A stretch of DNA of 64,000 nt from Acutalibacteraceae bacterium (lineage in GTDB: Bacteria; Bacillota_I; Bacilli_A; RFN20; CAG-449), in assembly GCA_963610315.1 (NCBI GenBank), contig CAVDMV010000003.1:39146-103145 (forward strand), written 5' to 3'. Shown here piece after piece: positions 2,946 to 60,003 of the stretch. The position numbers were made by a program, and so were the translations under genes. Under the pieces are notes generated by a model. It made no database searches, was not told the DNA's origin, and saw only the letters and a list, made by a program, of their open reading frames with translations. Positions within the stretch are counted from its first letter, which is position 1. Each line of letters begins with the position of its first letter.

Positions 2946-3584
2946 TTAATCAAATTTTAAATCTAGTATTTCTTCAAAGCTATTAATTGGATAATCCGTT
3001 TTATAACATTTACTTGCATAACTTATTCCAATAGTTTTAAATTTTCCGTTAATTCCGGCATTAATTCCTGAAATGGCATCTTCAACAATCACACATTCAC
3101 TTGGTGATAAATGAAGATATTCCGCGGCAAGTAAAAATACTTCGGGGTCAGGTTTGGCACGCGTTATATTAGTTCCATCACTAACTGCATCAAAATATTT
3201 TCTTAAATCTGTTTTTTCTAAGATTAATTTAGTATTTTTACTTGAAGAACCTACCGCTAGTTTATAGCCTCGTTTTTTTAATTCTTCTAAAGTTGATCTT
3301 ACATTATTAGGAACTTTTTGAGGCGACATATTTTCTAGATAAGTTTTATATATATCATTTTTATATTCAGCCATTTGTTCTTTTTCTTCTTCACTATATT
3401 GCTTATTAGAATAAGATAAAATAGCGTTTAAACTATCCATTCTTGAAAGTCCTCTTAATTCATCACTTATATTTTTATTAAAAGGAATATTTAATTTATC
3501 AGCTAATGCTTTCCAAGCTAAATAATGATATTCATCAGTTGATAATAAAACGCCATCTAGATCAAAGATAATACCTTTTATCAT
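2946..3584 (-). CDS. pgmB: beta-phosphoglucomutase (HAD superfamily)
   Basis: N-terminal FDLDGVL motif; AEYHYLAWKALA closely matches the beta-PGM consensus; length 212 aa; last gene of the sugar ABC operon. Confidence 0.85.
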   Translation of the reverse strand: MIKGIIFDLDGVLLSTDEYHYLAWKALADKLNIPFNKNISDELRGLSRMDSLNAILSYSNKQYSEEEKEQMAEYKNDIYKTYLENMSPQKVPNNVRSTLEELKKRGYKLAVGSSSKNTKLILEKTDLRKYFDAVSDGTNITRAKPDPEVFLLAAEYLHLSPSECVIVEDAISGINAGINGKFKTIGISYASKCYKTDYPINSFEEILDLKFD

Positions 3585-3671
3585 AATTCTCCTCCATTAT
3601 CTCTTAAAAACACAAAGTGAACCCCAAAGTTAGTTATCATCTAACCTTAAGATTCACTTTTTAATTATTTA

Positions 3672-5279
3672 TTATTCAATAGTTAAAGTACCTAAGCAAA
3701 GAAGTTCTTGTGATTCACGGTCAAATAACATGATATGATTACCTCTAAAACCTAATTTAATATCAGTTCCAATCATATAATCAACCGCGCCAAATTCATC
3801 ACCGGTCAGTAGATAGTTACCTACTTCTAAACGAATAGTTGTTTCTTTACCAGTAGGCATTGCGCTATAAACTTTTGCTTCAAGATTACCACCTTCATTA
3901 ATAGTGATATATTGTGATCTTACCCCAAGAACAAAGTCAAATTCATCGATAGTTGGATTATCTGGAACATCGATTGGTTGAGTAATTAATGGAATCTTAT
4001 AAGGGAATGGTCCATCTTTATTTGATTTATCTTCATTAACTGGACGAATATTCTTCTTAATTTCTTCACGACGTTTTTCTAAATCGAAATTTGGATCAGT
4101 TGGAGTAAAAATAGCCACTTTATCATCAAAGATTTTAAATTTAAAGGAATTACCTTCTTTTTTACCTCTTGCTTCAATTAAGTTAACTGCTGGGGTACCA
4201 ATAAAGTCCGCGACAAAGAGATTATTTGGATAATGATAAGTACGAATTGGAGGTTCATATTGTTGTAAAACACCATTATTCATTAAGCAAATTCTTGTTG
4301 CAAGAGTCATCGCTTCTAGTTGGTCGTGAGTAACATAAACGAAAGTCGCTCCTGTTTCCATATGGAGACGTTTTAATTCAGAACGCATTTCTAAACGTAG
4401 TTTTGCATCAAGGTTACTTAAAGGTTCATCCATAAATAAAACCTTAGGTCCAGGAGCTAAAGTACGCGCAATCGCGACACGTTGTTGTTGACCACCTGAT
4501 AATTCAGCAGGATAACGATCCATGAATTGAGTGATTTTTAATGTACGAGCTGAAGCACGTAATTTTAAATCGATTTCTTCAGGAGAAAGATGACGTACTT
4601 TTCTAATTGGATTACCATTTTCATCTAAATAACAATATTTATCATTTAGTTTGTCACCCTTCTTTTCGTGTTTGTCTAAGATCTTTTTAATTTCTTCATT
4701 TACTTTTTTTCTTTCTTCTTCTACTTTAGTTACTTCATAGCCTTTAGAAAGAAGTTTATAAGCTTTCTTTGCAGTAGGATAACTTACTTCAAAGAAATCA
4801 GTGATTTTAATAATCGCCGTTTCATCTTTAATTCTACCGTTTTTATCCGCGGCATCTTTAATTAAAGAAACAATCTTTTCTGGCTTATCTAAAACATTTA
4901 AATAATCATGTAAAGCGATTAAATCCCAATCATAGACATCCATTTCTTCATTGACATTCTTTAAACCAAAAGCAATGTTTTGATAAACTGTCATATTAGG
5001 CCATAAAGCATAGTTTTGGAATAAGAAACCAACATGACGTTTACTCGCAGAAACATTAATACCAAGTTCAGAATCAAAGACAACTTCATCACCGATAATA
5101 ATTCTTCCAGAAGTCGGAGTTTCAAGTCCTGCAATCATACGTAGCGTTGTAGTTTTACCACATCCAGATGGACCAAGTAATGTAACGAAACTATTATTAG
5201 GGATTTCTAAATTTAAATCATCAACGCCATAAAATTTACCCCATTTTTTATTGACGTGTTCTAATACAATTTTAGGCAT
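3672..5279 (-). CDS. sugar ABC transporter ATP-binding protein (MalK/MsmK-like) with a large inserted region
   Basis: Walker A GPSGCGKTT, Q-loop, LSGGQQQR signature, Walker B LFMDEPLSNLD; start taken at MPKIV (GGAGGAGG RBS), not the upstream in-frame Met; about 140 aa inserted between Q-loop and signature. Confidence 0.85.
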   Translation of the reverse strand: MPKIVLEHVNKKWGKFYGVDDLNLEIPNNSFVTLLGPSGCGKTTTLRMIAGLETPTSGRIIIGDEVVFDSELGINVSASKRHVGFLFQNYALWPNMTVYQNIAFGLKNVNEEMDVYDWDLIALHDYLNVLDKPEKIVSLIKDAADKNGRIKDETAIIKITDFFEVSYPTAKKAYKLLSKGYEVTKVEEERKKVNEEIKKILDKHEKKGDKLNDKYCYLDENGNPIRKVRHLSPEEIDLKLRASARTLKITQFMDRYPAELSGGQQQRVAIARTLAPGPKVLFMDEPLSNLDAKLRLEMRSELKRLHMETGATFVYVTHDQLEAMTLATRICLMNNGVLQQYEPPIRTYHYPNNLFVADFIGTPAVNLIEARGKKEGNSFKFKIFDDKVAIFTPTDPNFDLEKRREEIKKNIRPVNEDKSNKDGPFPYKIPLITQPIDVPDNPTIDEFDFVLGVRSQYITINEGGNLEAKVYSAMPTGKETTIRLEVGNYLLTGDEFGAVDYMIGTDIKLGFRGNHIMLFDRESQELLCLGTLTIE

Positions 5280-7161
5280 GTTTATTTTTACCTCCTCCGA
5301 TACCTGAGTCAATTGAAGCACCGGTTAATTTATTTACACCAAAGTTTGCGATTAAGACAAAGATAATAATTAATAAGTTAATCGCACTTGAGAAGGCTGA
5401 TAAGCCCATTTCATCATAATAAGATAATGATGTAGTCGCGATTTGATCGTTGTTTGTTACTAAGAACATGAATAAATTTAATTCACGCATACCAGTAATA
5501 AATGGTAATAAGTAACCTGAGATAATCGCGGATTTTTGAATAGGTATAACAATATGTGTCATACGTTTCCACCAAGGAGCCCCTTGAATAACGGCAGCTT
5601 CTTCAATTTCTGAAGATAATTGCATCATCGCGCTTAATGAAGAACGAGAAGCAAATGGAATATATTTAACAGATCCGCAGAGAATCATTAGGAACATTGC
5701 TCCTGCTGCTCCGGATATACCGGCATTTAATCCAAAGGCATGATATGCTGCTGAGAAAGCAACGGCTGGAATTAAATAAGGAAGGAACGAAATACCATTT
5801 ACATAACCTGCAAATTTATTCTTTCTCTTCTTTGATACACAATATCCAACTAAGAAGCCAAGAGTACCAGCAATAAGCGCACAGCTAACTGCAACTAAAG
5901 CTTGATTTCCAAATGATTTCCAAATATTTGTGTTATAGAAAATACCATAGTTACCATACATTCCAGCTTCACCATTTTCGTGATATGTCCACCATTTAGT
6001 TGTCCAAGATGAATAGTCTCCTGGGTTAGATAAGAACGTTTCAACACCGAAAGAAATAACAGGTAAGATAGAAGTAAAGGCAGTTAAGATAATTAAGATA
6101 ACTGCAATAACCCATTTACCAACTTTATTTAATTGAATCTTTGTTGCTTGAGCTGATTTACCAGAAACTGTAACGAATTGTTTTCTTGAAGTTAAAGAAG
6201 CTTGGTTAATAATTAAGATAATAAAACCGATAAGAAGCATTACAATACCGATAATAGAAGCAAATCCTTCACCAGTAATCGCTCTTAAATCAATGTAAGA
6301 AGTCGCAAGTACTTGGAAGTCTTTTCCGCCGACATAGTGAACGACTGGATAAGAACCAACTGCACTTGAGAAAACAAGTAAGATAGTTGAAAGTATCGCT
6401 GGAATAATCATTGGAATTGTAATTCTAAAGATGATTTTCCATTTTGGTGTATTTAAGATTGTCGCCGCTTCTTCAAGTGAAGCATCCATATTCTTAAAAA
6501 TACCACCGATTAAAATATAAGCAAATGCTGCATAGTGAATACCTAATACTAATGCTGAAGGGAATAAGCCTTGACACCACCATAAAGGGAAACGCCACGA
6601 AATTCCCATCTTAGAGAACATATAAGCAAAGAATCCATTAGAACCACCTGTTACATCCGCTGACCAGAATAAGTTTTTCCAAACAACTGCCAACGTCCAT
6701 TGAGGCATGATGTAAGGGAAAATGAAGATTGATGAAATCCACTTCTTACAAGGCAAGTTAGTTCTAGTAACTAAGAATGCCGCAATACCACCAAAAACTA
6801 AAGCAAACAAGCAACTTAACGTTCCTAGAAGTAACGAATTACCTAATGGAACCCAAAGATATTTATTCGCATAAGCGCCGCCGAAAAGATTAGCCCAGTT
6901 AGAAACTGAAAGTCCAACGGTATTATATCCATAGGCTTTTGCAAATTGCATTTCTTTACCAGCATGGACGGTAAATGAATTTTGAATAATAGACCAAAGA
7001 GGATAAAGAACTGCGAAAGATAACACTACACCCAATATTAGTAAAATTAAATTTTCAGGTCGAGAAATCCACGTGCCAACATGTGACATTACTTTATCCA
7101 TTGTTCCAGGAGTCTTTATATTACTAGAAGAATCTGAATATTCTTTTTTGTTTTTAAACAT
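5272..7161 (-). CDS. sugar ABC transporter permease (long, multi-span)
   Basis: Many predicted TM helices; start at MFKNKK with AAAGGAGA RBS; overlaps the ATPase start by 8 nt. Confidence 0.75.
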   Translation of the reverse strand: MFKNKKEYSDSSSNIKTPGTMDKVMSHVGTWISRPENLILLILGVVLSFAVLYPLWSIIQNSFTVHAGKEMQFAKAYGYNTVGLSVSNWANLFGGAYANKYLWVPLGNSLLLGTLSCLFALVFGGIAAFLVTRTNLPCKKWISSIFIFPYIMPQWTLAVVWKNLFWSADVTGGSNGFFAYMFSKMGISWRFPLWWCQGLFPSALVLGIHYAAFAYILIGGIFKNMDASLEEAATILNTPKWKIIFRITIPMIIPAILSTILLVFSSAVGSYPVVHYVGGKDFQVLATSYIDLRAITGEGFASIIGIVMLLIGFIILIINQASLTSRKQFVTVSGKSAQATKIQLNKVGKWVIAVILIILTAFTSILPVISFGVETFLSNPGDYSSWTTKWWTYHENGEAGMYGNYGIFYNTNIWKSFGNQALVAVSCALIAGTLGFLVGYCVSKKRKNKFAGYVNGISFLPYLIPAVAFSAAYHAFGLNAGISGAAGAMFLMILCGSVKYIPFASRSSLSAMMQLSSEIEEAAVIQGAPWWKRMTHIVIPIQKSAIISGYLLPFITGMRELNLFMFLVTNNDQIATTSLSYYDEMGLSAFSSAINLLIIIFVLIANFGVNKLTGASIDSGIGGGKNKHA

Positions 7162-9129: not shown

Positions 9130-9867
9130 ATGAACATCAAAATATCAAATCGTTTAATCGAATTAAGAAAGAAATATGGTTATTCACAAGAGCAACTTGC
9201 TGAAAAACTAGGTCTTTCACGTCAAGCAGTATCTAAATGGGAAAGAGCCGAGGCAAGTCCCGATACTGATAATCTTATTTGTTTAGCTAAATTGTATAAT
9301 GTATCTTTAGATGAACTTCTCTCTACTGATGAAGAAGATATCGAATCAATTATTAAAGATAACAAAGAAAAGAATAATGATAACGAGAAAGAACAAGGTA
9401 TCTACATTAAAGATGGCGAAGACACTTTAACTATCAAAAATGGACAAATCCATATTGTAGGAAATGATGGAGATAGTGTTCACATAGCTGATGGAAAGAT
9501 TAACCTTAAGTCCAGTGATGGAGAAAACCTCACAATTAATTATAAGAAATGGATCTATAATATTTTTAAAAGTATCATCTTTGCTTTAGGATTTATCACC
9601 TATGTTGTTTTAGGTTTTGCTTTAAATAATGGGTGGGCATTATATTGGCCAGTTATCCTTATTTCTCTTAGTTTAGCTAGTATTGCTGACGCTATTGAAG
9701 CAAAGAAATTTTGTAATTTCTTATTCCCAGTTTTAATTAGTGGAATTTATTGTTTAATCGGAATGATATTTTCTTTATGGCATCCAATGTGGGTTATCTT
9801 TTTATCTATACCTATTTATTATGCAGTCTTTGAACCACTTGATAAATTTTTAAAACATAAAAAATAA
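9130..9867 (+). CDS. XRE-family HTH transcriptional regulator with C-terminal transmembrane domain
   Basis: AGGAGG RBS before MNIKISNRL; HTH motif YSQEQLAEKLGLSRQAVSKWE; three hydrophobic helices at the C-terminus; true start downstream of the ORF-track start. Confidence 0.8.
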   Translation: MNIKISNRLIELRKKYGYSQEQLAEKLGLSRQAVSKWERAEASPDTDNLICLAKLYNVSLDELLSTDEEDIESIIKDNKEKNNDNEKEQGIYIKDGEDTLTIKNGQIHIVGNDGDSVHIADGKINLKSSDGENLTINYKKWIYNIFKSIIFALGFITYVVLGFALNNGWALYWPVILISLSLASIADAIEAKKFCNFLFPVLISGIYCLIGMIFSLWHPMWVIFLSIPIYYAVFEPLDKFLKHKK

Positions 9868-48116: not shown

Positions 48117-48341
48117 TTAATTCATTTTTTTTGAAATTGCTTCAACAATATCTTTAACATATTTGAAAGATAACATTTCTTCGTTACTAAATTCAATGTT
48201 ATATTTTTCTTCCATTTCTAATAAAACATCAACTACATCAAGGGAATCTAGTCCTAATTCTTTAATTGTGCTGTCCATTGTTACATCTTTGTTTTTTGCA
48301 ATCTTTTTTAATCCTGAAATTACTTCTTCTGAAATATTCAT
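48117..48341 (-). CDS. acyl carrier protein (copy 3, stand-alone)
   Basis: 74 aa, acidic; phosphopantetheine site LGLDSLDVV. Confidence 0.7.
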   Translation of the reverse strand: MNISEEVISGLKKIAKNKDVTMDSTIKELGLDSLDVVDVLLEMEEKYNIEFSNEEMLSFKYVKDIVEAISKKMN

Positions 48342-48545: not shown

Positions 48546-49664
48546 ATGAAACACATTAATTTATTACTTATTTCTTTATTAGCAACTACTACATTATTTT
48601 CTTGTTCAAATAATAGTAATAGTAATGAAGGAATCGAATATCAAACAATAGTAGATGCAAAAGATAGATCTATACAAGTAAAAAAAGAAGTTAACAAAAT
48701 TTGTGTAACATTTAACATTGAAGAATACTTTGCTATCTATGGTGATAATGCCGATACAAAATTAGTTGGTTGGTCACATTCTTATTTAAATGGTAGAAGA
48801 AATGATGCTTATGAAGCTTATACAAAAGCTTATCCTTCATTAGTTAGTATACCTGATATTGGTTATGGAGCGAGTTTAAATGCTGAATCTATCTTAGCTT
48901 TGAATCCTGATGTAGTTATTTCTTCTTTAAGCGCAGATTATTCTTATTTAGAGCCTCAATTATCATTATTAGAAAAAGCTAATATACCAGTTGTATTTGT
49001 CGATTATCATACAGATACTATTGAATCAATAAAAAATTCTAATTCAATATTAGGTAAATTATTAAATAGAGAAGATAGAGCTAATGAAATCTCTTCTTTT
49101 TATGAAAGTAAGGTTTCACCGATTTTTGAAAAAGCAAAAACTATTAAAGAGGAAGATAAACCTAATGTTTATATGGAATTTTCTAAAGGCAAAGATACAT
49201 ATGGTAACACTTGGTCAAATAAGATGTGGGGATCATTAATTCAACAAGTCGGTGGTAATAATATTGCTTATAACCTTACTGACGCAACAAGTGTTGATAT
49301 GGCTAAAGAAGCTATCATTAAATATAATCCTGATGTCATCATTTTAACAGGTACATTACAATCAGGTTTACAAGATAATGTTGTTTTAGGTTATAACCAA
49401 GATGAAGAAAAAGCAAAAATTAATTTAGCTTCATATTTAGAAAGAAGCGAATGGAAAGATATTAATGCCGTTAAAAATCGTAATTTATCCGCGGTATATC
49501 ATGACTTATCTCGCCATATATTTGATTTTGCTGGAGTTGAATTTTTAGCGAAGAAGATTCAACCAACTATTTTCGGTGATTTAGATCCTATGAAGGATTT
49601 AAAAGAATTTTTCTCAAAATATATGCCTTTTGAAATAGAAGGTTGTTTCACCGTTGAATTATAG
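48546..49664 (+). CDS. iron-chelate (siderophore/heme-type) ABC transporter substrate-binding lipoprotein
   Basis: Lipobox LFSC-SNN; TroA/FecB-like class III binding-protein architecture; 372 aa. Confidence 0.8.
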   Translation: MKHINLLLISLLATTTLFSCSNNSNSNEGIEYQTIVDAKDRSIQVKKEVNKICVTFNIEEYFAIYGDNADTKLVGWSHSYLNGRRNDAYEAYTKAYPSLVSIPDIGYGASLNAESILALNPDVVISSLSADYSYLEPQLSLLEKANIPVVFVDYHTDTIESIKNSNSILGKLLNREDRANEISSFYESKVSPIFEKAKTIKEEDKPNVYMEFSKGKDTYGNTWSNKMWGSLIQQVGGNNIAYNLTDATSVDMAKEAIIKYNPDVIILTGTLQSGLQDNVVLGYNQDEEKAKINLASYLERSEWKDINAVKNRNLSAVYHDLSRHIFDFAGVEFLAKKIQPTIFGDLDPMKDLKEFFSKYMPFEIEGCFTVEL

Positions 49665-49672
49665 GTCCATCT

Positions 49673-50689
49673 ATGAATAATTATATTATTTCTGATTATC
49701 TAAAAAAGAACCTCATTAAAATTAGTTCTTTAGTTGTTGTTACAATATTAGTTATCTTATTATTTTTTGTCGATATCTTTGTTGGAAGCGCAAATCTTAC
49801 AATTTTTGAAACTTTATGTGCGATATTTTCTCCCGGAAGCGTATCTTCAAATATTGTTTTAATTGTGCGAGAACTACGTATTCCTATCGCTTTAATGGCT
49901 ATTTTAATTGGTTTATCATTAGGTACAAGTGGTTCAGTTATGCAAACTATTCTTCATAATCCACTTGCTTCACCTTATACTTTAGGAATTGGTGCCGGCG
50001 CTTCATTTGGCGCGACTATCGCTATCCTTTTTTCCGGTAACGACTTTGTTATTGCCGGCTTAGCTTTCGTATTTGCTATGTTCATTTCTTTAACCATCTT
50101 TATCATTGGTAGATTTAAGAAAATATCAACGCATACTATGACATTATTAGGTATTGCCTTACTTTTCTTTTTCAAAGCTTTACAATCATTTGTTCAATAT
50201 TTTGCTAGTGAAGATCAAAATCAAAGCATTGTCTTCTGGGAATTTGGTTCTTTACAAAAGGTAGATTACCAAAAGGTCTTAATTTTATTAGTTGCTTTTG
50301 CGATTATTTTTCCTTTATTATTAAGAAATTCTTGGAAGTACACTACTCTTTCTTTAGGTGATATGAAAGCTGAAAGCTTAGGTATTCAAACTTCTAAATT
50401 AAAACTAGAATCATTTGTTCTCATTTCAATTTTATCAGCGTTATCAGTTTGTTTTACTGGTCCTATTGGTTTTATTGGTATTGCAAGTCCTCATATTGCT
50501 CGATTAATAACTGGCGATGATCATCGTTTCTATTTACCTCTTTCAGGGTTAATTGGAGCCTTTATCCTTTTAATATCAGATATTATTTCTAAAATTATTA
50601 TGCCTGGATCTATTTTCCCAATTGGTATTATTACATCATTAATTGGTGTTCCATTTTTCTTTGCAGTATTAATAAAGGAGAAAGATTAA
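49673..50689 (+). CDS. iron-chelate ABC transporter permease (FecCD family)
   Basis: 338 aa, about 9 TM helices, FecCD-type conserved Gly-rich segments. Confidence 0.85.
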   Translation: MNNYIISDYLKKNLIKISSLVVVTILVILLFFVDIFVGSANLTIFETLCAIFSPGSVSSNIVLIVRELRIPIALMAILIGLSLGTSGSVMQTILHNPLASPYTLGIGAGASFGATIAILFSGNDFVIAGLAFVFAMFISLTIFIIGRFKKISTHTMTLLGIALLFFFKALQSFVQYFASEDQNQSIVFWEFGSLQKVDYQKVLILLVAFAIIFPLLLRNSWKYTTLSLGDMKAESLGIQTSKLKLESFVLISILSALSVCFTGPIGFIGIASPHIARLITGDDHRFYLPLSGLIGAFILLISDIISKIIMPGSIFPIGIITSLIGVPFFFAVLIKEKD

Positions 50690-50690
50690 T

Positions 50691-51485
50691 ATGTCATTAA
50701 AAATTGAAAATATTTATTATGCTTATCCTAAATCAAATGAGAATACATTAAATGGTGTTTCTTTAGAATTAAAAGATGGAGAAATAACTACTATATTAGG
50801 TCCTAATGGAGCTGGTAAAACTACTCTTATTAAATTACTAACTTCTTCGATAAAAAAAGAAGGTAAAATCTATTTAGATAATAAAGATTTAAGTGAAATC
50901 TCTTTAAATGAAAGAAGTAATATCTTTGGCTATTTACCTCAAGAGAATTCAAAATTATCTTCTTTAACTGTCTTTGAAGTAGTTCTATTAGGTAATATTG
51001 ATAACTTAGGTATTAAAATTAGTAAAGAACAGCTTGAACATACTTCCTCAATCATTCAACAATTTGGATTATCTAATATTGCGAATAAAAAATTCTCTTC
51101 TTTATCAGGTGGACAAAGAAAAATTGTTTCTATCGCTCAAATAATTTCAAAGAATCCTAAAATATTAATTCTAGATGAGCCTACCGCGAACTTAGATGTC
51201 TATAATGAAATTGAAGTATTATCATTAATACAAAGTTATGTTAAAAAGAAAAATATTGCTTGCTTATTAGTTTTACATTCTATTAATCTAGCAAGTAGAT
51301 ATTCAGATAAAATATGCTTGTTAAAGAAAGGCCAAATATATAAAGTCGGCTCACCAATAGAAGTTATTACTGAAGAAAACTTATTAAATGTTTATCAAGT
51401 TAAAATTGAAAAAACTATATCTAAAAATGGTTATCCTTTAATTCATATTTTAGAAAATGAAGATAAGAAAGATTATTCATTTTAG
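50691..51485 (+). CDS. iron-chelate ABC transporter ATP-binding protein
   Basis: Walker A GPNGAGKTT, LSGGQRK signature, Walker B ILILDEPT; 264 aa. Confidence 0.88.
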   Translation: MSLKIENIYYAYPKSNENTLNGVSLELKDGEITTILGPNGAGKTTLIKLLTSSIKKEGKIYLDNKDLSEISLNERSNIFGYLPQENSKLSSLTVFEVVLLGNIDNLGIKISKEQLEHTSSIIQQFGLSNIANKKFSSLSGGQRKIVSIAQIISKNPKILILDEPTANLDVYNEIEVLSLIQSYVKKKNIACLLVLHSINLASRYSDKICLLKKGQIYKVGSPIEVITEENLLNVYQVKIEKTISKNGYPLIHILENEDKKDYSF

Positions 51486-51550
51486 TGAATAGTCTTTTTT
51501 GTTAGCAAATAAATAGGCTTGATTTGTTACAATCAAACCAAATAAGCTAC

Positions 51551-51624
51551 TGGAGCAATCAACGGGAATCGAACCCGCGTTAGAAGCTTGGGAAGCATCA
51601 GTTCTACCATTAAACTATGATTGC
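51551..51624 (-). tRNA. tRNA-Gly (anticodon probably CCC)
   Basis: Reverse complement GCAATCATAGTTTAATGGTAGAAC...TTCCCAA...GGGTTCGATTCCCGTTGATTGCTCCA; loop TTCCCAA as in E. coli glyU; one U-U mismatch in the anticodon stem. Confidence 0.75.
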
Positions 51625-51644: not shown

Positions 51645-52676
51645 TTAAATTAAGTATAAATAGATTAAATCTAAGGTATTTTTAATACCTTCAATGTGTG
51701 TTCTTTCCATGCCATGGGAAGCGTGTACGCCAGTACCGATTAATGCGCCTTTAAAGTCTCTACCAGCTCTAGAAGCGGCTGAAACATCGCTACTATAGAA
51801 TGGGAAGATATCAACGGTATATTTAATATTGTTTTCTTTTGCTAAGTTAATTAATCTAGTGGTTAATTCATAATCATATGGTCCACTCGCATCTTTCGCG
51901 CATATAGAACAAGAATATTCGTTTCCTGCTAAATCTAGGCCAATACAGCCCATATCAAGCGTGACAAATTCAGAAATTTCTTCACTTACTGCACTCGCGC
52001 CATGACCTACTTCTTCATAGACAACAAAATACATTTTTGTATTGTATTTAGGAGTTACGTTATGTTCTTTCATGTATGTTAAGAGCATTAATAAAATAAC
52101 TACTGAGGCTTTATCATCAATAAATCTAGTTTTTAAGAATCCTGATTCAGTGATTTCAAATTTAGGATCGTAACATACGATATCGCCGTTTTGAATACCT
52201 AGTTTTTCTACATCCGCTTTAGAAAATACTTTTTCATCTAATCTAACTTCAAGGTTATCAATATCTCTAGCTTTAGTTTTTGCATCAGGATAGACGTGAA
52301 CGGCAGGAGAAGTAGAAAGAATAGTTCCAGTATAAACCTTATTATCTCTAGTATAGATTTTACAGTATTCACCATCTAAAGTTGGAGTTGAAGGTCCTCC
52401 AAGAACTGTTAAAGCTAATGTACCGTTTGCTTTAATAGAACGAACCATGAGGCCTAATGTATCTAGATGTGCACTTGTCGCGACAGTTTTAGAATTATCT
52501 TTACCTTGAATAGAAACTTCTAATGCCCCGTTATTTAAAATCTTATAATCATAACCTAAATCTTTAATATAATTTTCTACTAGTTTTACCGCATTAGAAG
52601 TAAATCCTGTAGGTGAATCACAAGTAAAGACATCTTTAGATATCTTTTTAAATAAATCATAATTAAATTCAATCAT
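51645..52676 (-). CDS. M42-family aminopeptidase (glutamyl aminopeptidase/FrvX-like)
   Basis: M42 peptidase architecture; start at MIEFNY after AAAGGAGA RBS; about 343 aa. Confidence 0.8.
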   Translation of the reverse strand: MIEFNYDLFKKISKDVFTCDSPTGFTSNAVKLVENYIKDLGYDYKILNNGALEVSIQGKDNSKTVATSAHLDTLGLMVRSIKANGTLALTVLGGPSTPTLDGEYCKIYTRDNKVYTGTILSTSPAVHVYPDAKTKARDIDNLEVRLDEKVFSKADVEKLGIQNGDIVCYDPKFEITESGFLKTRFIDDKASVVILLMLLTYMKEHNVTPKYNTKMYFVVYEEVGHGASAVSEEISEFVTLDMGCIGLDLAGNEYSCSICAKDASGPYDYELTTRLINLAKENNIKYTVDIFPFYSSDVSAASRAGRDFKGALIGTGVHASHGMERTHIEGIKNTLDLIYLYLI

Positions 52677-52689
52677 TGCTAGTCTCCTT

Positions 52690-53154
52690 TTAATTAATAA
52701 TATCAATAAATTCTGCTTCTACGTATTTAGCTAGAGTATTAGGTTCAATTTCAATTTGATAACCTACTTTTCCCGCCGAAACGCATATTGTATCAAATAA
52801 AATAGCAGTATCATTAATAATCGTTTTAAATTTCTTTTTCATTCCAATAGGAGAACATCCTCCATGAATATAACCAGTTAATGGAAGAAGTTCTTTTTGA
52901 TGAATCATTTCAATCGATTTAACTCCAACTGCTTTTGCTGCCTTCTTTAAATCTAACGAATGATTGACTGGAATACAAAAGACATAATAATTTTTATCAT
53001 TAGCTTTTGTCACTAATGTTTTAAATACTTGTTCTACGTCTTGAGATAAAGTTTTCGCAACTTCTTCTCCATTAGTGATAGAATTACTATAAGTATGCAT
53101 CTCATATTCAATTTTTGCTGCATCTAATAAGCGAGAAACATTAGTCTTTTCCAT
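52690..53154 (-). CDS. ybaK: YbaK/ProX-type aminoacyl-tRNA trans-editing deacylase (Cys-tRNA(Pro) deacylase)
   Basis: 154 aa; YbaK-like fold; 14-nt overlap with the upstream gene. Confidence 0.75.
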   Translation of the reverse strand: MEKTNVSRLLDAAKIEYEMHTYSNSITNGEEVAKTLSQDVEQVFKTLVTKANDKNYYVFCIPVNHSLDLKKAAKAVGVKSIEMIHQKELLPLTGYIHGGCSPIGMKKKFKTIINDTAILFDTICVSAGKVGYQIEIEPNTLAKYVEAEFIDIIN

Positions 53155-54421
53155 TTTCTTTACCTATATTTTCTCTTGCAAGCGCAAGCATTAATTTAAT
53201 TCTATTTTCTTGGTTAACTTTACTTGCCGATGAATCATAATCAATTGGAGTAATATTAGTTTCTGGATACAATGACTTTAATTTATTCATAACGCCTTTA
53301 CCGCAGACATGATTTGGTAAACAACCAAATGGTTGAGCGCAGACAATATTAGGATAACCTTCTTTAATTAGTTCTTTCATTTCCGCGGAAAGTAACCATC
53401 CTTCACCCATTTTAGCCCCATGTTTAATAACACCTAAGGATTCTTTTCTCGTTTCTTTAAATGGTTTCATTGGAGTAAAGGAAGAATATTTCTTAATTGA
53501 TTTAATCATTAATGTTTCATAATGAGTAATAAATTTTAATAAGAAGGTATTATAGATTTTCTTAGATAATTTAGTTCCATAATATCGATGATCATATTCA
53601 CCATTCGCAAAGCAATATAATAAGAAGCCAAATACACCAGGAACGCAGATTTCCGCCCCTTCAGAAATTAAGAATTGTTCAAGGTTATTATTACCGATTG
53701 AAGCATATTTAACATAAATTTCTCCAACAATACCAACTTTTGGTTTAGGTGTAATTTCAATAGGTAAAGAAGCAAAATCGTTAACGATAGCTTTTAAGTT
53801 CTTCTTAATTTGATGTAAAGAAGATCCTCTTCCATTTCTAAGTTCATTTCGTAAATAATTATTCCATTTTACTACTAATTCATCAGAACTACCTTTTTTC
53901 GTTTCATATGATCTAGTTTTATTATGTAAATACATAATGGTATCACCATAAGTAACCGCAGCAAGTAGATTCATTAAGAAAGGTAATGTAATATCAATAC
54001 CCTCTGATTTAGATAAATCTCCAAGATTTAAGGTAATAACTGGAACAAAGCCAAAGCCAGCATTTTCTAATGCTTTTCTAAGTAATGGTACGTAGTTAGT
54101 CGCTCGACATCCTCCACCAGTTTGAGTGAGAACTAACGCGACATGATGAACATCATCTTCATGTTTTAAAGCGTCGATAAATTGACCGATAACACATGTT
54201 GCAGGATAACAAGTATCGTTATGAACGTATTTTAGTCCTTCTTTAACTAAGATAGTTTCTTTATTTTGAAGGATTTTTGCTTTAAAACCCATCTTTTCAA
54301 TCGCCCCAGCGATTATATCCATATGAGAATCAAGGAAGGAAGGAACTAAAATAGTATGAGTTTTTTTCATTTCAGGAGTGAACTTAGGATAATCTAAAAT
54401 ATAATCTTTTTTATTTTCCAT
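53141..54421 (-). CDS. 2-hydroxyacyl-CoA dehydratase-like (HgdB/DUF2229-type) protein
   Basis: 426 aa; conserved Cys-containing dehydratase-like fold; translationally coupled to the activase gene (11-nt overlap). Confidence 0.55.
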   Translation of the reverse strand: MENKKDYILDYPKFTPEMKKTHTILVPSFLDSHMDIIAGAIEKMGFKAKILQNKETILVKEGLKYVHNDTCYPATCVIGQFIDALKHEDDVHHVALVLTQTGGGCRATNYVPLLRKALENAGFGFVPVITLNLGDLSKSEGIDITLPFLMNLLAAVTYGDTIMYLHNKTRSYETKKGSSDELVVKWNNYLRNELRNGRGSSLHQIKKNLKAIVNDFASLPIEITPKPKVGIVGEIYVKYASIGNNNLEQFLISEGAEICVPGVFGFLLYCFANGEYDHRYYGTKLSKKIYNTFLLKFITHYETLMIKSIKKYSSFTPMKPFKETRKESLGVIKHGAKMGEGWLLSAEMKELIKEGYPNIVCAQPFGCLPNHVCGKGVMNKLKSLYPETNITPIDYDSSASKVNQENRIKLMLALARENIGKENGKD

Positions 54422-57332
54422 TTTTTTCTCTCTCCTTTCCTTCTAATGCGGCGAGTAATGATCTAATTCTAATCTTTACCGCGCCTAAATTAGTGATTTC
54501 ATCAATCTTAATTTGGGTATATATTTTGCCATTTGATTCAAGTAATTTCTTTGTTTCATCAGTTGTAATTGCATCTAGTCCGCAGCCAAATGATACAAGT
54601 TGAATAAGGTTTACATCTTCATTATCTGAAGCAAATTTTGCTGCAGAATATAATCGTGCGTGATATGTCCATTGATTTAAAACGTTAGTTGCAAATTTCT
54701 TATTTAAGTGAGAAATACTATCTTCAGTAATAACCGCACAATTAAAACCTAAGATTAGTTTATCAATACCATGGTTTACTTCTGGATCTACGTGATATGG
54801 TCTACCAGCAAGAACAAAGATTCTTTTTTCTTCTTTTCTTGCTTTTGAAATAATGATTTGGCCTTGTTCACGGATATATTTTAAATAATTATCGTATTCT
54901 TCATATGCTTTTTTTGAAGCTTGTTGAATCTCTTTTTTAGAAAATCCACCAATACGATAATTTAAGATTTCAAGAATCTTCTTATTAAATTGTTTTTTAT
55001 CATGTAAAGATAAATAGTCTCTAATAAAGTTAATATCTTTTAATTTTTCAACATTATTAATAATAGTTTCAGGATAATAAGCGACAATTGGACAATTGTA
55101 ATGGTTTTGAGAAATACCTTCATCAATGTTATATGACATACATGGATAGAAGATTACTTTATAACCATCGTCAATTAATTTTTCGATATGTCCATGAACT
55201 AATTTAGCTGGGTAACAAGCCGTATCAGATGGAATTGTATGTTGTCCTTTATGATATAAACTAGGTGAAGAAAATCCTGAATTATGAACTTCAAAACCTA
55301 ATTCAGTAAAGAAGGTATACCAGAAAGGTAATAATTCATAATTATTTAAAACTAAAGGTAAAGCAATTTTGCCTCTTTTACCAGCTTTAGGTTCATAAGA
55401 CATTAATTTATTTTGAATAATTTTATAAAGATTATATTCATCAGATTGAGATTTCTTAGTAATAGGTTTTTCACATTTATTACCAGAGATAAATTTACTT
55501 CCATTATTAAATGTATTCATTGTTAATGCACAATGGTTATTACAGCCATTACAGTTAAAAGAAACTGTTTTAAAAGTAAATGAATTAATTTCGTCAAGAG
55601 AAATGATACTTGATTTTTCTAATTTTAATTCTTTCGCTTGTAAAGCAGAACCATAAGCTCCAGCAAGGCCAGCAATATTAGGACGAGTAACATTTAGATT
55701 TAATTCTTTTTCAAAGGCCCTTAAAACCGCTTCATTATAGAAAGTACCGCCTTGAACAACAATGTTTTTACCTAGTTCACTAGGATCTGCGACTCTAATA
55801 ACCTTATAGATTGCATTTTTAACTACAGACATCGATAACCCTGCAGAAATATTATCAATAGTCGCGCCATCTTTTTGTGCTTGTTTAACGCTAGAGTTCA
55901 TAAAGACTGTACATCTTGAGCCTAAATCTACTGGCTTTTTAGCGAGTAAACCAAGCTTAGAGAATTCTTCAATGTTATAGCCTAAAGCATTAGAAAATGT
56001 TTGTAAGAAAGATCCACATCCGGAAGAACAAGCTTCGTTTAAGAAGATGTTAGAGATAACTCCATTTTCAATTTTGAAGCATTTAATATCTTGTCCCCCA
56101 ATGTCGATAATAAAATCAACATTGTTATTAAAGTGTTTTGCAGCTTTAAAATGAGCCATCGTTTCAACAATACCATAGTCTAAAGAAAAGGCATTTTTAA
56201 TTAAATCTTCGCCATAGCCTGTTGAACAAGCACCTTTAATTTTAGTATCAGGATTAATCTCATAAATCTCTTTTAAAATATCTTTAAAAACGATTAATGG
56301 TTTACCTTGGTTAGGTAAATATTTTGTATAACGAATATTTTCATTATCATCGATTAAAACAACTTTTAAAGTAGTTGATCCTGAATCAACACCTAAATAT
56401 AAATTATCTTTATAGCCTTCTAATGGAAGAATATCGACTTTAGCAAGAGCATGTCTTTTTCTAAATGCTTCTAGTTCTTCTTCTGAGTTAAATAAAGGCT
56501 CGTTAAATGCATAATTTCCGCTTGCTTTAGATTCTTCAAAAAGTAATAATACATCATCTAATTTATATTTTTTACTCGCGCATAAAGCTGATCCTAATGC
56601 AACATAAAATAAAGAATTTTCTGGACAAGTACCTTTTAATTCTAATGATTCATCAAAGGAATTCCTAAGTTCTTCAATAAATGTTAATGGTCCACCTAAA
56701 TAAACGATATTACCTTTAATTTCTCTACCTTGTGCAAGTCCTCCAATAGTTTGATTAACAACTGATTTAAAAATAGATCTTGCAACATCTTCTTTAGATG
56801 CACCTTGATTTAAAAGAGCTTGAATATCAGTTTTCGCGAAAACTCCACATCTAGAAGCAATTGTATATGTTTTATTAGCTTTACTAGATAGTTTGTTCAT
56901 CTCATCAATAGAAACATTTAATAATGTTGCCATTTGGTCAATAAATGCACCAGTTCCTCCGGCACAAGTACCGTTCATTCTTACTTCTAAACCGTGATTT
57001 AAAAAGAGAATCTTTGCATCTTCTCCTCCAAGTTCAATAATACAATCAGTATCTTTTAAATAAGTTGTGGCAGCAATTCTAGTTGCATAAACTTCTTGTA
57101 CGAAATCAATATTTAAGCTTTGAGCGATTCCCATTCCCGCGGAGCCACTCATACCGATGAATACATTTTCATCTAATATGATATTTTTATCTTTTAATTC
57201 CTTAATTACTTTTAATAAATTTTCTTTAATATGGGAATAATGACGAGTATATGAAGAATAAATTAATTTACCTTCATCATTTAATACGACACATTTAATA
57301 GTTGTTGATCCAATATCTAATCCAATGCGCAT
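54411..57332 (-). CDS. CoA-substrate-specific enzyme activase-like protein: two BadF/BcrA/HgdC-type ATPase domains plus a C-terminal dehydratase-like domain
   Basis: Two ASKHA-fold repeats (IGLDIGSTTIKCVV...; LGVDSGSTTLKVVL...), CNGCNNHC cysteine cluster, about 330 aa C-terminal domain; start at MRIGLD after GGAGG. Confidence 0.7.
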   Translation of the reverse strand: MRIGLDIGSTTIKCVVLNDEGKLIYSSYTRHYSHIKENLLKVIKELKDKNIILDENVFIGMSGSAGMGIAQSLNIDFVQEVYATRIAATTYLKDTDCIIELGGEDAKILFLNHGLEVRMNGTCAGGTGAFIDQMATLLNVSIDEMNKLSSKANKTYTIASRCGVFAKTDIQALLNQGASKEDVARSIFKSVVNQTIGGLAQGREIKGNIVYLGGPLTFIEELRNSFDESLELKGTCPENSLFYVALGSALCASKKYKLDDVLLLFEESKASGNYAFNEPLFNSEEELEAFRKRHALAKVDILPLEGYKDNLYLGVDSGSTTLKVVLIDDNENIRYTKYLPNQGKPLIVFKDILKEIYEINPDTKIKGACSTGYGEDLIKNAFSLDYGIVETMAHFKAAKHFNNNVDFIIDIGGQDIKCFKIENGVISNIFLNEACSSGCGSFLQTFSNALGYNIEEFSKLGLLAKKPVDLGSRCTVFMNSSVKQAQKDGATIDNISAGLSMSVVKNAIYKVIRVADPSELGKNIVVQGGTFYNEAVLRAFEKELNLNVTRPNIAGLAGAYGSALQAKELKLEKSSIISLDEINSFTFKTVSFNCNGCNNHCALTMNTFNNGSKFISGNKCEKPITKKSQSDEYNLYKIIQNKLMSYEPKAGKRGKIALPLVLNNYELLPFWYTFFTELGFEVHNSGFSSPSLYHKGQHTIPSDTACYPAKLVHGHIEKLIDDGYKVIFYPCMSYNIDEGISQNHYNCPIVAYYPETIINNVEKLKDINFIRDYLSLHDKKQFNKKILEILNYRIGGFSKKEIQQASKKAYEEYDNYLKYIREQGQIIISKARKEEKRIFVLAGRPYHVDPEVNHGIDKLILGFNCAVITEDSISHLNKKFATNVLNQWTYHARLYSAAKFASDNEDVNLIQLVSFGCGLDAITTDETKKLLESNGKIYTQIKIDEITNLGAVKIRIRSLLAALEGKEREKNGK

Positions 57333-57482
57333 AACTTTCCTCCATTTCTCAAATATTATAAGAAGAAGTCGGTTAAAAAACAATAAATAAAAAATACTCT
57401 CTTATTATTTTAAAAAAATAATATATTTCATTTTATTTCTTAATATTATATAATTAGTTTGTATTTCCAAGGAGGATTAACT

Positions 57483-58541
57483 ATGGGATTATTTAACAAA
57501 AAACAATTATTAAAAGTTATTGAATTTGAAGACGAATCAAAAGACGTTTTAGTTAACAAATATCAACTTAAAGATCGTGATGAGATTATGAACTCTTCTA
57601 CATTAGTAGTTAGACCATCTCAAATAGCATTATTTGTTCATAAAGGTCAAGTTTGTGATGTCTTTGCACCAGGTACATATAAATTAGCAACTGAAAACAT
57701 TCCTTTCTTAACTAAATTATTAAGTTTACCTACAGGTTTTGATTCACCTATTAAAGCAGAAGTATATTTCATTAATACAAAACAAATCACTGGTTTAAAA
57801 TGGGGAACTCAAAATCCAATCATGATGAGAGATAACGACTTCGGTAACGTTAGATTAAGAGCGTTCGGTGTCTACTCTTTCAAAGTTAAAAACGCAAAAG
57901 TCTTTATGGAAGAAATGTTTGGTACAAATTCTATCTATAAAGCAAGTGATGTAGCAGAACAAATGAAACCAGTCATCGTTCAAGGTTTCTCTGATGCAAT
58001 CGCTGAAAGTAAAATTTCTGCTCTCGATTTAGCAGCAAATTACAAAGAATTCTCAACAACAATTTTAGCGAAGAACCAAGAAGAATTTGAAAAATTCGGT
58101 CTTGAATTATGCACATTAGTCATTGAAAATATTTCTCTTCCAGAAGAAGTTGAAAAAGCTCTCGACGAAAGAACAAAACTTGGTGTTCTTGAAGATAAGA
58201 TGGGTACTTACGCTCAATACAAAGCTGCAAATGCAATGGAAGAAGCAGCAAAGAATCCTAATGGAAACAATATGGCTGGCTTAGGTGTTGGTATCGGCGC
58301 AGGAGCAAATATCGGAGCAATGTTTGGTTCAGCTTTATCAAGCGCACAAAATAAACCAAAAGAAGCACCAACTTCAACTGCAACTAAGAAATGTCCACAA
58401 TGTGGTGCAGATGTTCCTTCAACAAGTAAATTCTGCCCAGAATGTGGTGAAAAAATGCCAGTAGCTAAATTCTGTTCTAACTGCGGAGCTAAATTACAAG
58501 AAGGCGCAAAATTCTGTCCTGAATGTGGAGAAAAACAATAA
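57483..58541 (+). CDS. SPFH/Band-7 domain protein with four C-terminal zinc-ribbon CxxC motifs
   Basis: AAGGAGG RBS; SPFH-like N-terminal domain; C-terminal CPQCG...CPECG...CSNCG...CPECG. Confidence 0.75.
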   Translation: MGLFNKKQLLKVIEFEDESKDVLVNKYQLKDRDEIMNSSTLVVRPSQIALFVHKGQVCDVFAPGTYKLATENIPFLTKLLSLPTGFDSPIKAEVYFINTKQITGLKWGTQNPIMMRDNDFGNVRLRAFGVYSFKVKNAKVFMEEMFGTNSIYKASDVAEQMKPVIVQGFSDAIAESKISALDLAANYKEFSTTILAKNQEEFEKFGLELCTLVIENISLPEEVEKALDERTKLGVLEDKMGTYAQYKAANAMEEAAKNPNGNNMAGLGVGIGAGANIGAMFGSALSSAQNKPKEAPTSTATKKCPQCGADVPSTSKFCPECGEKMPVAKFCSNCGAKLQEGAKFCPECGEKQ

Positions 58542-59611
58542 TGGAAAATGAAGAAGTAGTAACAAAAGAACTTGCTTCTAGTGATAAAAAATGTCCTACT
58601 TGTGCTTCGGAATTAAGTTTTGATCCTAAAACAAAAAAATTAAAATGTTGTTCATGTGGTAACACTTATGAATTTGATCAAGTTTTAAACAATGATAAAC
58701 ATGATTTAAATTTAGAAGAACAAAGTATCTCTACTAAAGAATGGGCTAATGAATCTAAGTTAGTAAAATGTTCTTCATGTGGGGCTAATATCATGATTAA
58801 TGGTTTAGCTATCACACAAGAATGTCCTTACTGCGGTTCTAAATATATCGTTGAAACTGATGAAGTTCCAGGTTTAAAACCTGACTGCGTCGTTCCATTT
58901 GCTTTTGATCAAGAAGATGCAAAAATCAAATTTAAATCAAAGATTAAAGGTAAGTTCTTTGTCCCTCATAAATTAAAAAAAGAATTCAAAGATGCTGATA
59001 TTAAAGGCATCTATATTCCTGCTTTCTCATTTGATGGAGAAACTAGATCTACTTATCACGGTACTGTTCAAGTATCTAAACAAGTCAAAACTAAAGATGG
59101 TTATAAAACAGTTTATGAAACTAGACCAATCTCTGGAACTTATGATTATGATTATTGTAACTTATTAGTTGAATCATCAACACAAATTAATAACGAACAA
59201 TTATCATCGATTACTCCATATAATCTTCATGAATCATATGCTTATAACAATGATTTCTTAAGAGGATATTATGTAGAACAATACGTTGATACTATTAAAG
59301 ATTGTCATTCTGTCGCAGAAAGTAGAGTTGGAAGTGATATTAAATCAGGTATTTCAAGTAAATATTCTGGTACCGTCACTTCATTATTTGTTGATACACA
59401 TTATTCAAACGAAAAATATAATTATCAATTATTACCTCTTTATTATGTTTCATTCTTATATAAAGAAAAAAGATATACAGCTTTAATGAATGGTCAAACT
59501 GGTAAAGTTGGTAAAGGATTACCTATTTCTAAATTAAAAGTCGCTCTTGTTGTATTTGTTGTATTAGTACTCATTGCACTTGTTGTATTCTTCATTATGA
59601 AATCAGAATAG
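58541..59611 (+). CDS. double zinc-ribbon protein with C-terminal transmembrane anchor
   Basis: TAATG stop/start overlap with the SPFH gene; CPTC...CCSCG and CSSCG...CPYCG ribbons; C-terminal hydrophobic helix. Confidence 0.6.
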   Translation: MENEEVVTKELASSDKKCPTCASELSFDPKTKKLKCCSCGNTYEFDQVLNNDKHDLNLEEQSISTKEWANESKLVKCSSCGANIMINGLAITQECPYCGSKYIVETDEVPGLKPDCVVPFAFDQEDAKIKFKSKIKGKFFVPHKLKKEFKDADIKGIYIPAFSFDGETRSTYHGTVQVSKQVKTKDGYKTVYETRPISGTYDYDYCNLLVESSTQINNEQLSSITPYNLHESYAYNNDFLRGYYVEQYVDTIKDCHSVAESRVGSDIKSGISSKYSGTVTSLFVDTHYSNEKYNYQLLPLYYVSFLYKEKRYTALMNGQTGKVGKGLPISKLKVALVVFVVLVLIALVVFFIMKSE

Positions 59612-59625
59612 AAAGGGGATTTAAA

Positions 59626-60003
59626 ATGAATAAAGTAAAAAGAAATAAAAAAATATACGCTATTATTGCCGCGGTAATTCTTGTTCTTGGTATTGGTTCA
59701 CTAGTCGGATCAGTATTTACATTAATTGCAGGAATTAGTAAATTCGGTCAAGAAAATCAATTAGTTTCCGCGATTATCGTTACCGTTGTTGGAGTATTAT
59801 TAGTTTTACTTGGAGGATTCTTAGTCGTCCTAGGTATTTATCATTTATGGATTGCTTCTGCATTAAAAGCAACAGATGGTAATATCGCTGAAGGAAATGA
59901 TCTTGCGAATAAAACAATCAACGCGAAAAAATGTCCTAAATGCGGCTGCACAAATACTCCTGGAGTAGATGTTTGCCAAAGTTGTGGTACAAAATTAGAT
60001 TAA
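59626..60003 (+). CDS. small two-TM membrane protein with C-terminal zinc ribbon
   Basis: GGGG RBS; two hydrophobic helices; CPKCGC...CQSCG. Confidence 0.6.
   Translation: MNKVKRNKKIYAIIAAVILVLGIGSLVGSVFTLIAGISKFGQENQLVSAIIVTVVGVLLVLLGGFLVVLGIYHLWIASALKATDGNIAEGNDLANKTINAKKCPKCGCTNTPGVDVCQSCGTKLD

Follow-up and report, generated by a model that had tools for sequence, protein, structure and literature searches.

Positions 51645 to 57332 of the 64,000-nucleotide (nt) stretch of contig CAVDMV010000003.1 analysed here (the window) carry a run of four minus-strand genes, encoding proteins of 973, 426, 154 and 343 amino acids (aa). We consider it highly likely that the first two of these (54411-57332 and 53141-54421) are plsA and plsR, which would together encode an oxygen-sensitive plasmalogen synthase, and that the two genes behind them, ybaK and a gene for an M42-family peptidase, form with a tRNA-Gly(CCC) gene a separate housekeeping block placed behind plsR. 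The pair would then be an ordinary orthologue of the known PlsA/PlsR in an uncultured bacterium. The features, in the order in which the minus strand is read, are:

57333..57458, no strand assigned: A+T-rich divergent intergenic region upstream of plsA, seen in the sequence
54411..57332, minus: putative plsA, 973-aa plasmalogen synthase large subunit (Act1-Act2-Red1), from the Clostridium perfringens match and Pfam
56574..57329, minus: Act1, first HgdC/BcrA-type ATPase (activase) domain, residues ~2-253, with C123 and C162 (NCBIfam stretch 2-253)
55635..56396, minus: Act2, second activase domain, residues 313-566, with C435 and C474 (phmmer match to HgdC)
55473..55553, minus: Cys motif C594-x2-C597-x3-C601 ... 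C620 between Act2 and Red1 (conservation)
54714..55370, minus: Red1, DUF2229 reductase/dehydratase-type domain, residues 655-873 (PF09989, 245 bits)
53141..54421, minus: putative plsR, 426-aa small subunit (Red2), 11-nt overlap with plsA
52690..53154, minus: ybaK, 154-aa Cys-tRNA(Pro) deacylase, passenger gene, 14-nt overlap with plsR
51645..52676, minus: M42-family aminopeptidase, 343 aa, passenger gene, 13-nt gap after ybaK
51551..51624, minus: tRNA-Gly(CCC), called by ARAGORN, 20 nt past the M42 stop, last of the ybaK-M42-tRNA block
51516..51539, minus: terminator-like hairpin with T-rich tail (pattern scan, consensus match only)

The open reading frame (ORF) for the 973-aa protein starts at an ATG with GGAGGAAAG before the start codon, the mechanical ORF being longer and reaching up to a TTG at 57383; the ATG of plsR has GGAAAGGAGAG on its upstream side, and the M42 gene is counted from an ATG with AAAGGAG upstream. 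A Mollicutes-type code, with UGA read as Trp, was considered as a possible source of altered ORFs and is ruled out, as the four proteins align end to end with their homologues under table 11.

Match to the anaerobic plasmalogen synthase

According to two papers (PMC9702350, PMC12838417), the plsA-plsR pair of Clostridium perfringens (CPE1194/CPE1195) was identified as the anaerobic plasmalogen synthase in 2021 by Jackson et al. PlsA-PlsR turns the acyl ester at sn-1 of a diacyl phospholipid into a vinyl ether and is encoded by a fused gene in facultative anaerobes (PMC9702350, PMC12838417, PMC8788747); its modules have been named Act1-Act2-Red1 in PlsA and Red2 in PlsR (PMC12838417). The reference operon was recovered by searching metagenome contigs for the gene-specific part of the cloning primer CpplAR-f (Table S6, PMC12838417), which gave 11 matches. 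In the locus labelled L090, which we take to be that of C. perfringens, the forward primer site is at 6694, the reverse primer matches where the second ORF ends, and together they bracket exactly 4,199 bp, the fragment size stated for CPE1194/1195 (PMC12838417). Its two ORFs, of 975 and 420 aa, are separated by an 8-nt gap, with PlsA at L090:6694-9621.

The window PlsA is 58% identical to that of C. perfringens across residues 2-963, and the window PlsR 47% identical over 417 residues. Homologues from lactic acid bacteria show 48-55% / 41-42% identity to C. perfringens, and the enzymes of Enterococcus faecalis and Lactococcus cremoris have been confirmed functionally (PMC12838417); the identity between the window and C. 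perfringens is at least that of these homologues, the confirmed enzymes included. A first-pass annotation of this DNA had described the pair as an enzyme system whose substrate is unknown, a statement that this full-length match to a plasmalogen synthase puts out of date. Its description of the 973-aa protein, as two activase domains followed by a C-terminal domain with a Cys cluster, holds. Pfam finds two BcrAD_BadFG stretches (PF01869, 209 bits) followed by DUF2229 (PF09989, 245 bits), the same pattern of two PF01869 stretches and PF09989 as in C. perfringens PlsA.

A scan for PlsR relatives also gave 80 loci, each with 8-kb flanks, from other GTDB species whose PlsR is 48-95% identical to that of the window, and these loci were searched with the window proteins; they come from the 80 closest species and include no C. 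perfringens, E. faecalis or other validated organism. The Clostridia among them are 53-61% identical to the window proteins in PlsA and 48-53% in PlsR, and that C. perfringens is as distant as these points to a single orthologous group. Three marks of PlsA/PlsR are found in the pair: the Act1-Act2-Red1 architecture with an adjacent Red2, similarity over the full length, and the Cys expected to hold the iron-sulphur (Fe-S) clusters.

Compared directly with the C. perfringens enzyme (UniProt Q8XL48/Q8XL47), the window has the same two adjacent genes in the same order and of much the same size (973 plus 426 aa in an operon of 4,192 bp, against 975 plus 420 aa in 4,199 bp), with the activase, Red1 and Red2 Cys conserved. 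The two differ at the plsA/plsR junction, an 11-nt overlap in the window and an 8-nt gap in C. perfringens; in what follows plsR, which is ybaK-M42-tRNA-Gly here and a two-component system there; and in the host, an Acholeplasma/Anaeroplasma-like gut member of the Bacilli rather than a Clostridium.

The single-chain PlsA of facultative anaerobes (E. faecalis EF1327/Q835P9, L. cremoris and Bifidobacterium longum), which has been shown to form plasmalogens in E. coli (PMC12838417), has the same modules, Act1-Act2-Red1-Red2, in one polypeptide of ~1,415-1,640 aa (genes of 4,248-4,920 bp), a likeness drawn from the published description. In the window and nearly all of its 80 relatives, by contrast, the enzyme is split after Red1. 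The first-pass annotation was thus right to see in the pair the split form of proteins that occur elsewhere as single chains, and a junction as short as that of plsA and plsR would suit genes for the two halves of a single enzyme. The possible exception is L085, where the junction script flags a possible fusion at 2-2755, with PlsA and PlsR matches in one frame and no stop between them; this call, unconfirmed by eye, could be a single-chain form amid otherwise split relatives.

The Cys pattern of PlsA is that of a doubled activase. C123 and C162 of Act1 are 39 residues apart, as are their counterparts in HgdC, and are conserved in C. perfringens; Act2 aligns with HgdC (1HUX) in phmmer at E = 3.9e-29, which sets C435 and C474 on HgdC C127 and C166, the ligands of its bridging [4Fe-4S] cluster. 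The activase domains match both HgdC and HadI at E about 1e-29. Because both domains carry the HgdC-type Cys at the 39-residue spacing, the tandem repeat could mimic an HgdC homodimer and hold one cluster. Between Act2 and Red1, the Cys of the motif C594, C597, C601 and C620 are conserved in C. perfringens PlsA (4/4) and may bind a metal or a cluster, and C706, C731, C747 and C917 are likewise conserved with C. perfringens.

The 426-aa PlsR is harder to place by sequence profile. It reaches no Pfam or NCBIfam threshold, the best Pfam hit being HGD-D (PF06050) at 16.7 bits (E = 0.0059) against a cut-off of 28.4, and a search of PDB sequences gave no match at E <= 1. An AlphaFold2 model (pLDDT 82.7, pTM 0.87, with low confidence at the loops that hold the conserved C105 and C367) was compared with known structures by Foldseek; the top 14 PDB matches are all chains of BzdNO, HadBC, DCCP or MbdON, that is, catalytic subunits of benzoyl-CoA reductases (BCR), 2-hydroxyisocaproyl-CoA dehydratase and the double-cubane cluster protein (DCCP), at modest scores (probability 0.98-1.0, TM about 0.42, identity 9-13%). 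On its predicted fold, then, PlsR is an HgdB/BCR-like partner. The earlier label of HgdB/DUF2229-like stands to that extent, and finds no counterpart among the family profiles. C71, C105 and C367 are invariant in 24 PlsR homologues and C361 nearly so, and all four are conserved in C. perfringens, while C373 is not. We infer that the conserved Cys of PlsA and PlsR bind Fe-S clusters. The C-terminal tail of PlsR is variable: it is four residues longer than in the relative L008, and its last five codons overlap the start of ybaK.

Genes around plsA-plsR

In every one of the 80 loci with enough sequence plsA adjoins plsR, and plsA comes before plsR in all but L070, a metagenome-assembled genome of an uncultured member of the Eubacteriales, where the order seems to be the other way round, plsR abutting plsA on its upstream side (3014-7161). 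The plsA/plsR junctions mostly lie between -14 and +18 nt, and at -11 nt in the closest relatives. A very different picture is given by the genes that follow. Only one of the 80 other species, the sister species L007 (PlsR 95% identical), has ybaK and M42 behind plsR, with the same 14-nt plsR/ybaK overlap and a ybaK-M42 gap of 13-14 nt in the two species. The two genes are absent from beside plsR in L008 (93%), L009 (93%), L010 (82%) and all other loci of the set, and also from beside the C. perfringens pair. There is therefore no cluster of plsR, ybaK and M42 conserved across species with plsA-plsR (1/80), and the coupling that the first-pass annotation had proposed is a lineage-specific juxtaposition.

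In L008, a terminator-like hairpin closes plsR, and the gene beyond, for a TadA-like deaminase, is convergent; the hairpin, AAAATAGGTCATT...AATGACCTATTTT at 9270-9400, directly follows plsR and marks the end of a two-gene operon in that species. L010 has a convergent DUF2188 gene beyond plsR. The contig of L009 (CAVDTI010000072.1) is titled 'Faecalibacterium prausnitzii', and its PlsA and PlsR are 87% and 93% identical to those of this low-GC Bacilli lineage; it contains a run of N within plsR and is probably mis-binned or mislabelled.

The passenger genes are of well-known kinds. The 154-aa YbaK scores 184.5 bits on TIGR00011 (YbaK_EbsC) over residues 4-152, above the equivalog cut-off of 153.25, and is 77% identical to an Acholeplasma hippikon protein named Cys-tRNA(Pro) deacylase. 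The 343-aa protein covers all of Peptidase_M42 (PF05343; 243 bits, profile positions 1-292 of 292). The M42 peptidase of the NAGGN system (TIGR03106) was considered as a more specific assignment and rejected, at 294.9 bits against a cut-off of 397.75.

Homologues of the M42 protein at 76-80% identity lie in three contexts, after a gene for an MFS transporter or a P-type ATPase or after hypothetical genes. For YbaK, homologues at 70-77% identity add five contexts, all different. In L105 (YbaK 77%, M42 76%), a PHP-domain gene, ybaK, M42 and tRNA-Gly(CCC) follow one another behind a sugar ABC transporter, with no pls genes. Since the set of ybaK, M42 and tRNA-Gly(CCC) recurs there behind unrelated genes, it is an independent block. 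The tRNA gene begins about 20 nt past the M42 stop in all three genomes (window 51551-51624, minus strand; L007 10801-10874; L105 7553-7626). Thus plsA-plsR and ybaK-M42-tRNA-Gly would be two independent blocks, which came to adjoin in the ancestor that this species shares with L007. The grouping of genes for tRNA editing, a peptidase and a tRNA is conserved both in the sister species and in L105, which is further off. Homologues of ybaK also tend to abut the gene upstream, with a 1-nt gap after the PHP-domain gene in L105 (5190-6465) and no gap in L107 (2-1084), which suggests that ybaK often has no promoter of its own and rides on neighbouring operons.

The chain of four genes with overlaps of 11 and 14 nt and a gap of 13 nt, as first described, checks out in coordinates and spacing, but such spacing is not, as had been claimed, unusual. 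Of 37 adjacent same-strand ORF pairs in the window, whose GC content is 30%, 22 are this close (9 overlapping and 13 at 0-15 nt), an approximate count because ORF starts were taken as maximal extensions, and independent gene calls on the same species give a like tight packing. Tight packing is the norm in this window, and nothing unusual.

The A+T-rich region at 57333-57458 is presumed to hold the promoter of plsA, and a pattern scan gives a weak promoter-like match (9/12) at 57431-57404. No convincing internal promoter was found before ybaK or M42, in a scan that found fewer promoter-like sites than in shuffled sequence and is uninformative either way; the pattern scan for terminators found none between the four genes, apart from weak matches within coding sequence. 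The same-strand run continues past 51645 through tRNA-Gly(CCC) to the terminator-like hairpin at 51516-51539, which is probably the end of the transcription unit.

Other genes near the pair were noted in passing. Divergent from plsA (57459-60003, plus strand) lies a gene for a 360-aa Band7/SPFH protein with C-terminal double zinc ribbons, which overlaps by 19 nt the gene of a 362-aa protein without a Pfam match, followed by a gene that encodes a zinc-ribbon protein of 125 aa; conservation of the three extends to L007, the sister species, and no further. At 48117-48341 on the minus strand, some 5 kb away from plsA-plsR, is a stand-alone gene for a 74-aa acyl-carrier-protein-like protein (PP-binding, with the motif LGLDSLD), between a tRNA-Asn/tRNA-Glu pair and an ABC transporter of iron-siderophore type (48546-51485).

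Alternative readings

The nearest rival in kind is that the pair is a glycerol ester reductase (Ger), which would use the same machinery to make saturated 1-O-alkyl ethers instead of vinyl ethers. Ger is a homologue of PlsA/PlsR, known from Thermotoga maritima (Tmari_0479) and Desulfatibacillum alkenivorans (SHJ90043), that shares with it a PlsA-like make-up, activity only under anaerobic conditions and the conversion of an sn-1 ester to an ether, and differs in its saturated product, its modified domain architecture and the distant phyla in which it occurs (PMC13159169). Two Pfam-detectable activase domains are associated with Ger-type enzymes (PMC13159169), and the window PlsA has two detectable PF01869 stretches; so, however, has the validated plasmalogen synthase of C. 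perfringens, to which it is 58% identical over the full length. The validated Ger enzymes are moreover single chains with plsA and plsR portions, whereas the window has the two-gene form of C. perfringens. The high identity to C. perfringens PlsA/PlsR would argue against Ger, which was compared by description only, and we regard this reading as unlikely. Plasmalogens were reportedly found in Anaeroplasma, a relative, by Langworthy et al. in 1975, which would fit; the literature found on Anaeroplasma plasmalogens consists of incidental co-mentions only. More remote is the reading of the pair as a 2-hydroxyacyl-CoA dehydratase or benzoyl-CoA-reductase-like enzyme with a fused activator, acting on some CoA thioester. 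The activase domains do match HgdC and HadI, the best structural matches of the PlsR model are BzdNO, HadBC, DCCP and MbdON, and homologues carry the database name '2-hydroxyacyl-CoA dehydratase'; HgdAB with HgdC, HadBC with HadI, BzdNOPQ, MbdONPQ and DCCP with DCCP-R all share with the window pair an ATP-driven HgdC-type electron injector and a heterodimeric Fe-S catalytic core. In the window, however, the activator consists of two tandem domains joined to one half of the catalytic core, and the catalytic parts are only ~10% identical to those systems; PlsR, at 9-13% identity to those structures, stays below the HGD-D threshold and without a PDB sequence match, both proteins match plasmalogen synthase over their full length at 47-58%, and no genes for amino-acid fermentation or aromatic degradation flank the pair. 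The arrangement of HgdAB or HadBC with a separate homodimeric activator of ~260 aa (HgdC or HadI) does not apply, the two activase domains being in tandem and fused to Red1 in the 973-aa chain. For PlsA/PlsR, the closest characterised relative, the substrate is a membrane phospholipid and no CoA thioester. It would be surprising if the CoA-thioester reading were correct.

The first-pass annotation had pointed to a tight coupling of an activase/dehydratase-like system to YbaK and M42. As a functional tie, this could run, for example, through a shared aminoacyl- or peptide-related substrate, with translational coupling as the sign of a joint pathway. The 14-nt overlap and the 13-14 nt gap are indeed conserved in the window species and L007, and the only terminator-like sites among the genes are the weak ones inside coding sequence. 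Among the 80 other plsA-plsR species, however, 79 do not have the linkage, relatives with a PlsR identity of 93% and 82% among them, and neither does C. perfringens; ybaK, M42 and tRNA-Gly stand behind unrelated genes in L105, and ybaK abuts different upstream genes in other relatives; YbaK scores above the equivalog cut-off as an ordinary Cys-tRNA(Pro) deacylase; and overlaps or gaps of at most 15 nt are the norm in the window. These neighbourhood data largely refute a functional coupling, which we now hold to be very improbable. That annotation had conceded that its view would fall if the linkage were unique to this genome or if the proteins matched a characterised 2-hydroxyacyl-CoA dehydratase of known substrate, and in substance both have come about, with the qualifications that the sister species shares the linkage and that the enzyme matched makes plasmalogens, being a member of the superfamily of the 2-hydroxyacyl-CoA dehydratases and not one of them. 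Least probable of all is that the joining of ybaK-M42-tRNA-Gly(CCC) to plsA-plsR is adaptive, whether because the quality control of translation or the turnover of peptides is co-regulated with the making of ether lipids under anoxia, or because YbaK or M42 has taken on a substrate related to lipids, for instance an aminoacylated lipid. This analysis gave nothing in its support, although co-transcription in the two species might carry some meaning.

Several points must also be set against the assignment to plasmalogen synthase and a separate passenger block. Function is assigned from homology, architecture, Cys conservation and the distribution of neighbourhoods, and at present PlsA, with its vinyl-ether product, and Ger, with its saturated alkyl ether, cannot be separated from sequence alone, no diagnostic motif having been published for Ger (PMC13274423); a vinyl-ether rather than a saturated-ether product is thus the probable rather than the certain outcome. 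The identification of L090 as C. perfringens rests on two primer matches and the fragment length rather than on a named record. Finally, the 14-nt plsR/ybaK overlap is conserved in two species, and would imply co-transcription and possibly translational coupling, so that co-regulation of ybaK with the pls genes may be real in this lineage even if functionally incidental.

Proposed mechanism and meaning for the organism

If the pair is PlsA/PlsR, the steps by which it works would be those of the family, and clusters, lipid substrate, product and co-transcription are all taken over from it or deduced. The two tandem HgdC-type ATPase domains of PlsA would form a pseudo-dimer, with one bridging [4Fe-4S] cluster on C123/C162 and C435/C474. 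ATP hydrolysis would then power the transfer of a low-potential electron to the Fe-S centres of a heterodimer of BCR/HAD type, made up of Red1 (PlsA) and Red2 (PlsR). This heterodimer would act on a diacyl glycerophospholipid, whose acyl ester at sn-1 it would reduce and dehydrate to a vinyl (1-alk-1'-enyl) ether, as has been proposed for the family (PMC8788747). In this species and its sister, a recent rearrangement would have brought ybaK-M42-tRNA-Gly(CCC) into place immediately after plsR, where the block is probably read through from the pls promoter and would have no functional link with the making of plasmalogens.

The same proteins, without any difference, are found in three metagenome-assembled genomes (GCA_963590545, GCA_963643105 and GCA_963616035), and among the named relatives are 'uncultured Bacilli', Coprobacillus, Anaeroplasma and Acholeplasmatales. 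The host appears to be an uncultured member of the class Bacilli from the gut, with Acholeplasma and Anaeroplasma as relatives.

Beyond annotation the significance is slight. Where genomes are compact and low in GC, the start and stop codons of unrelated neighbours often overlap, and such overlaps are no sign of a common pathway. Two genes that databases label '2-hydroxyacyl-CoA dehydratase', 'CoA activase' or 'predicted nucleotide-binding protein' gain a specific, literature-backed function, and their presence suggests that an uncultured gut lineage of the Bacilli may make plasmalogens.

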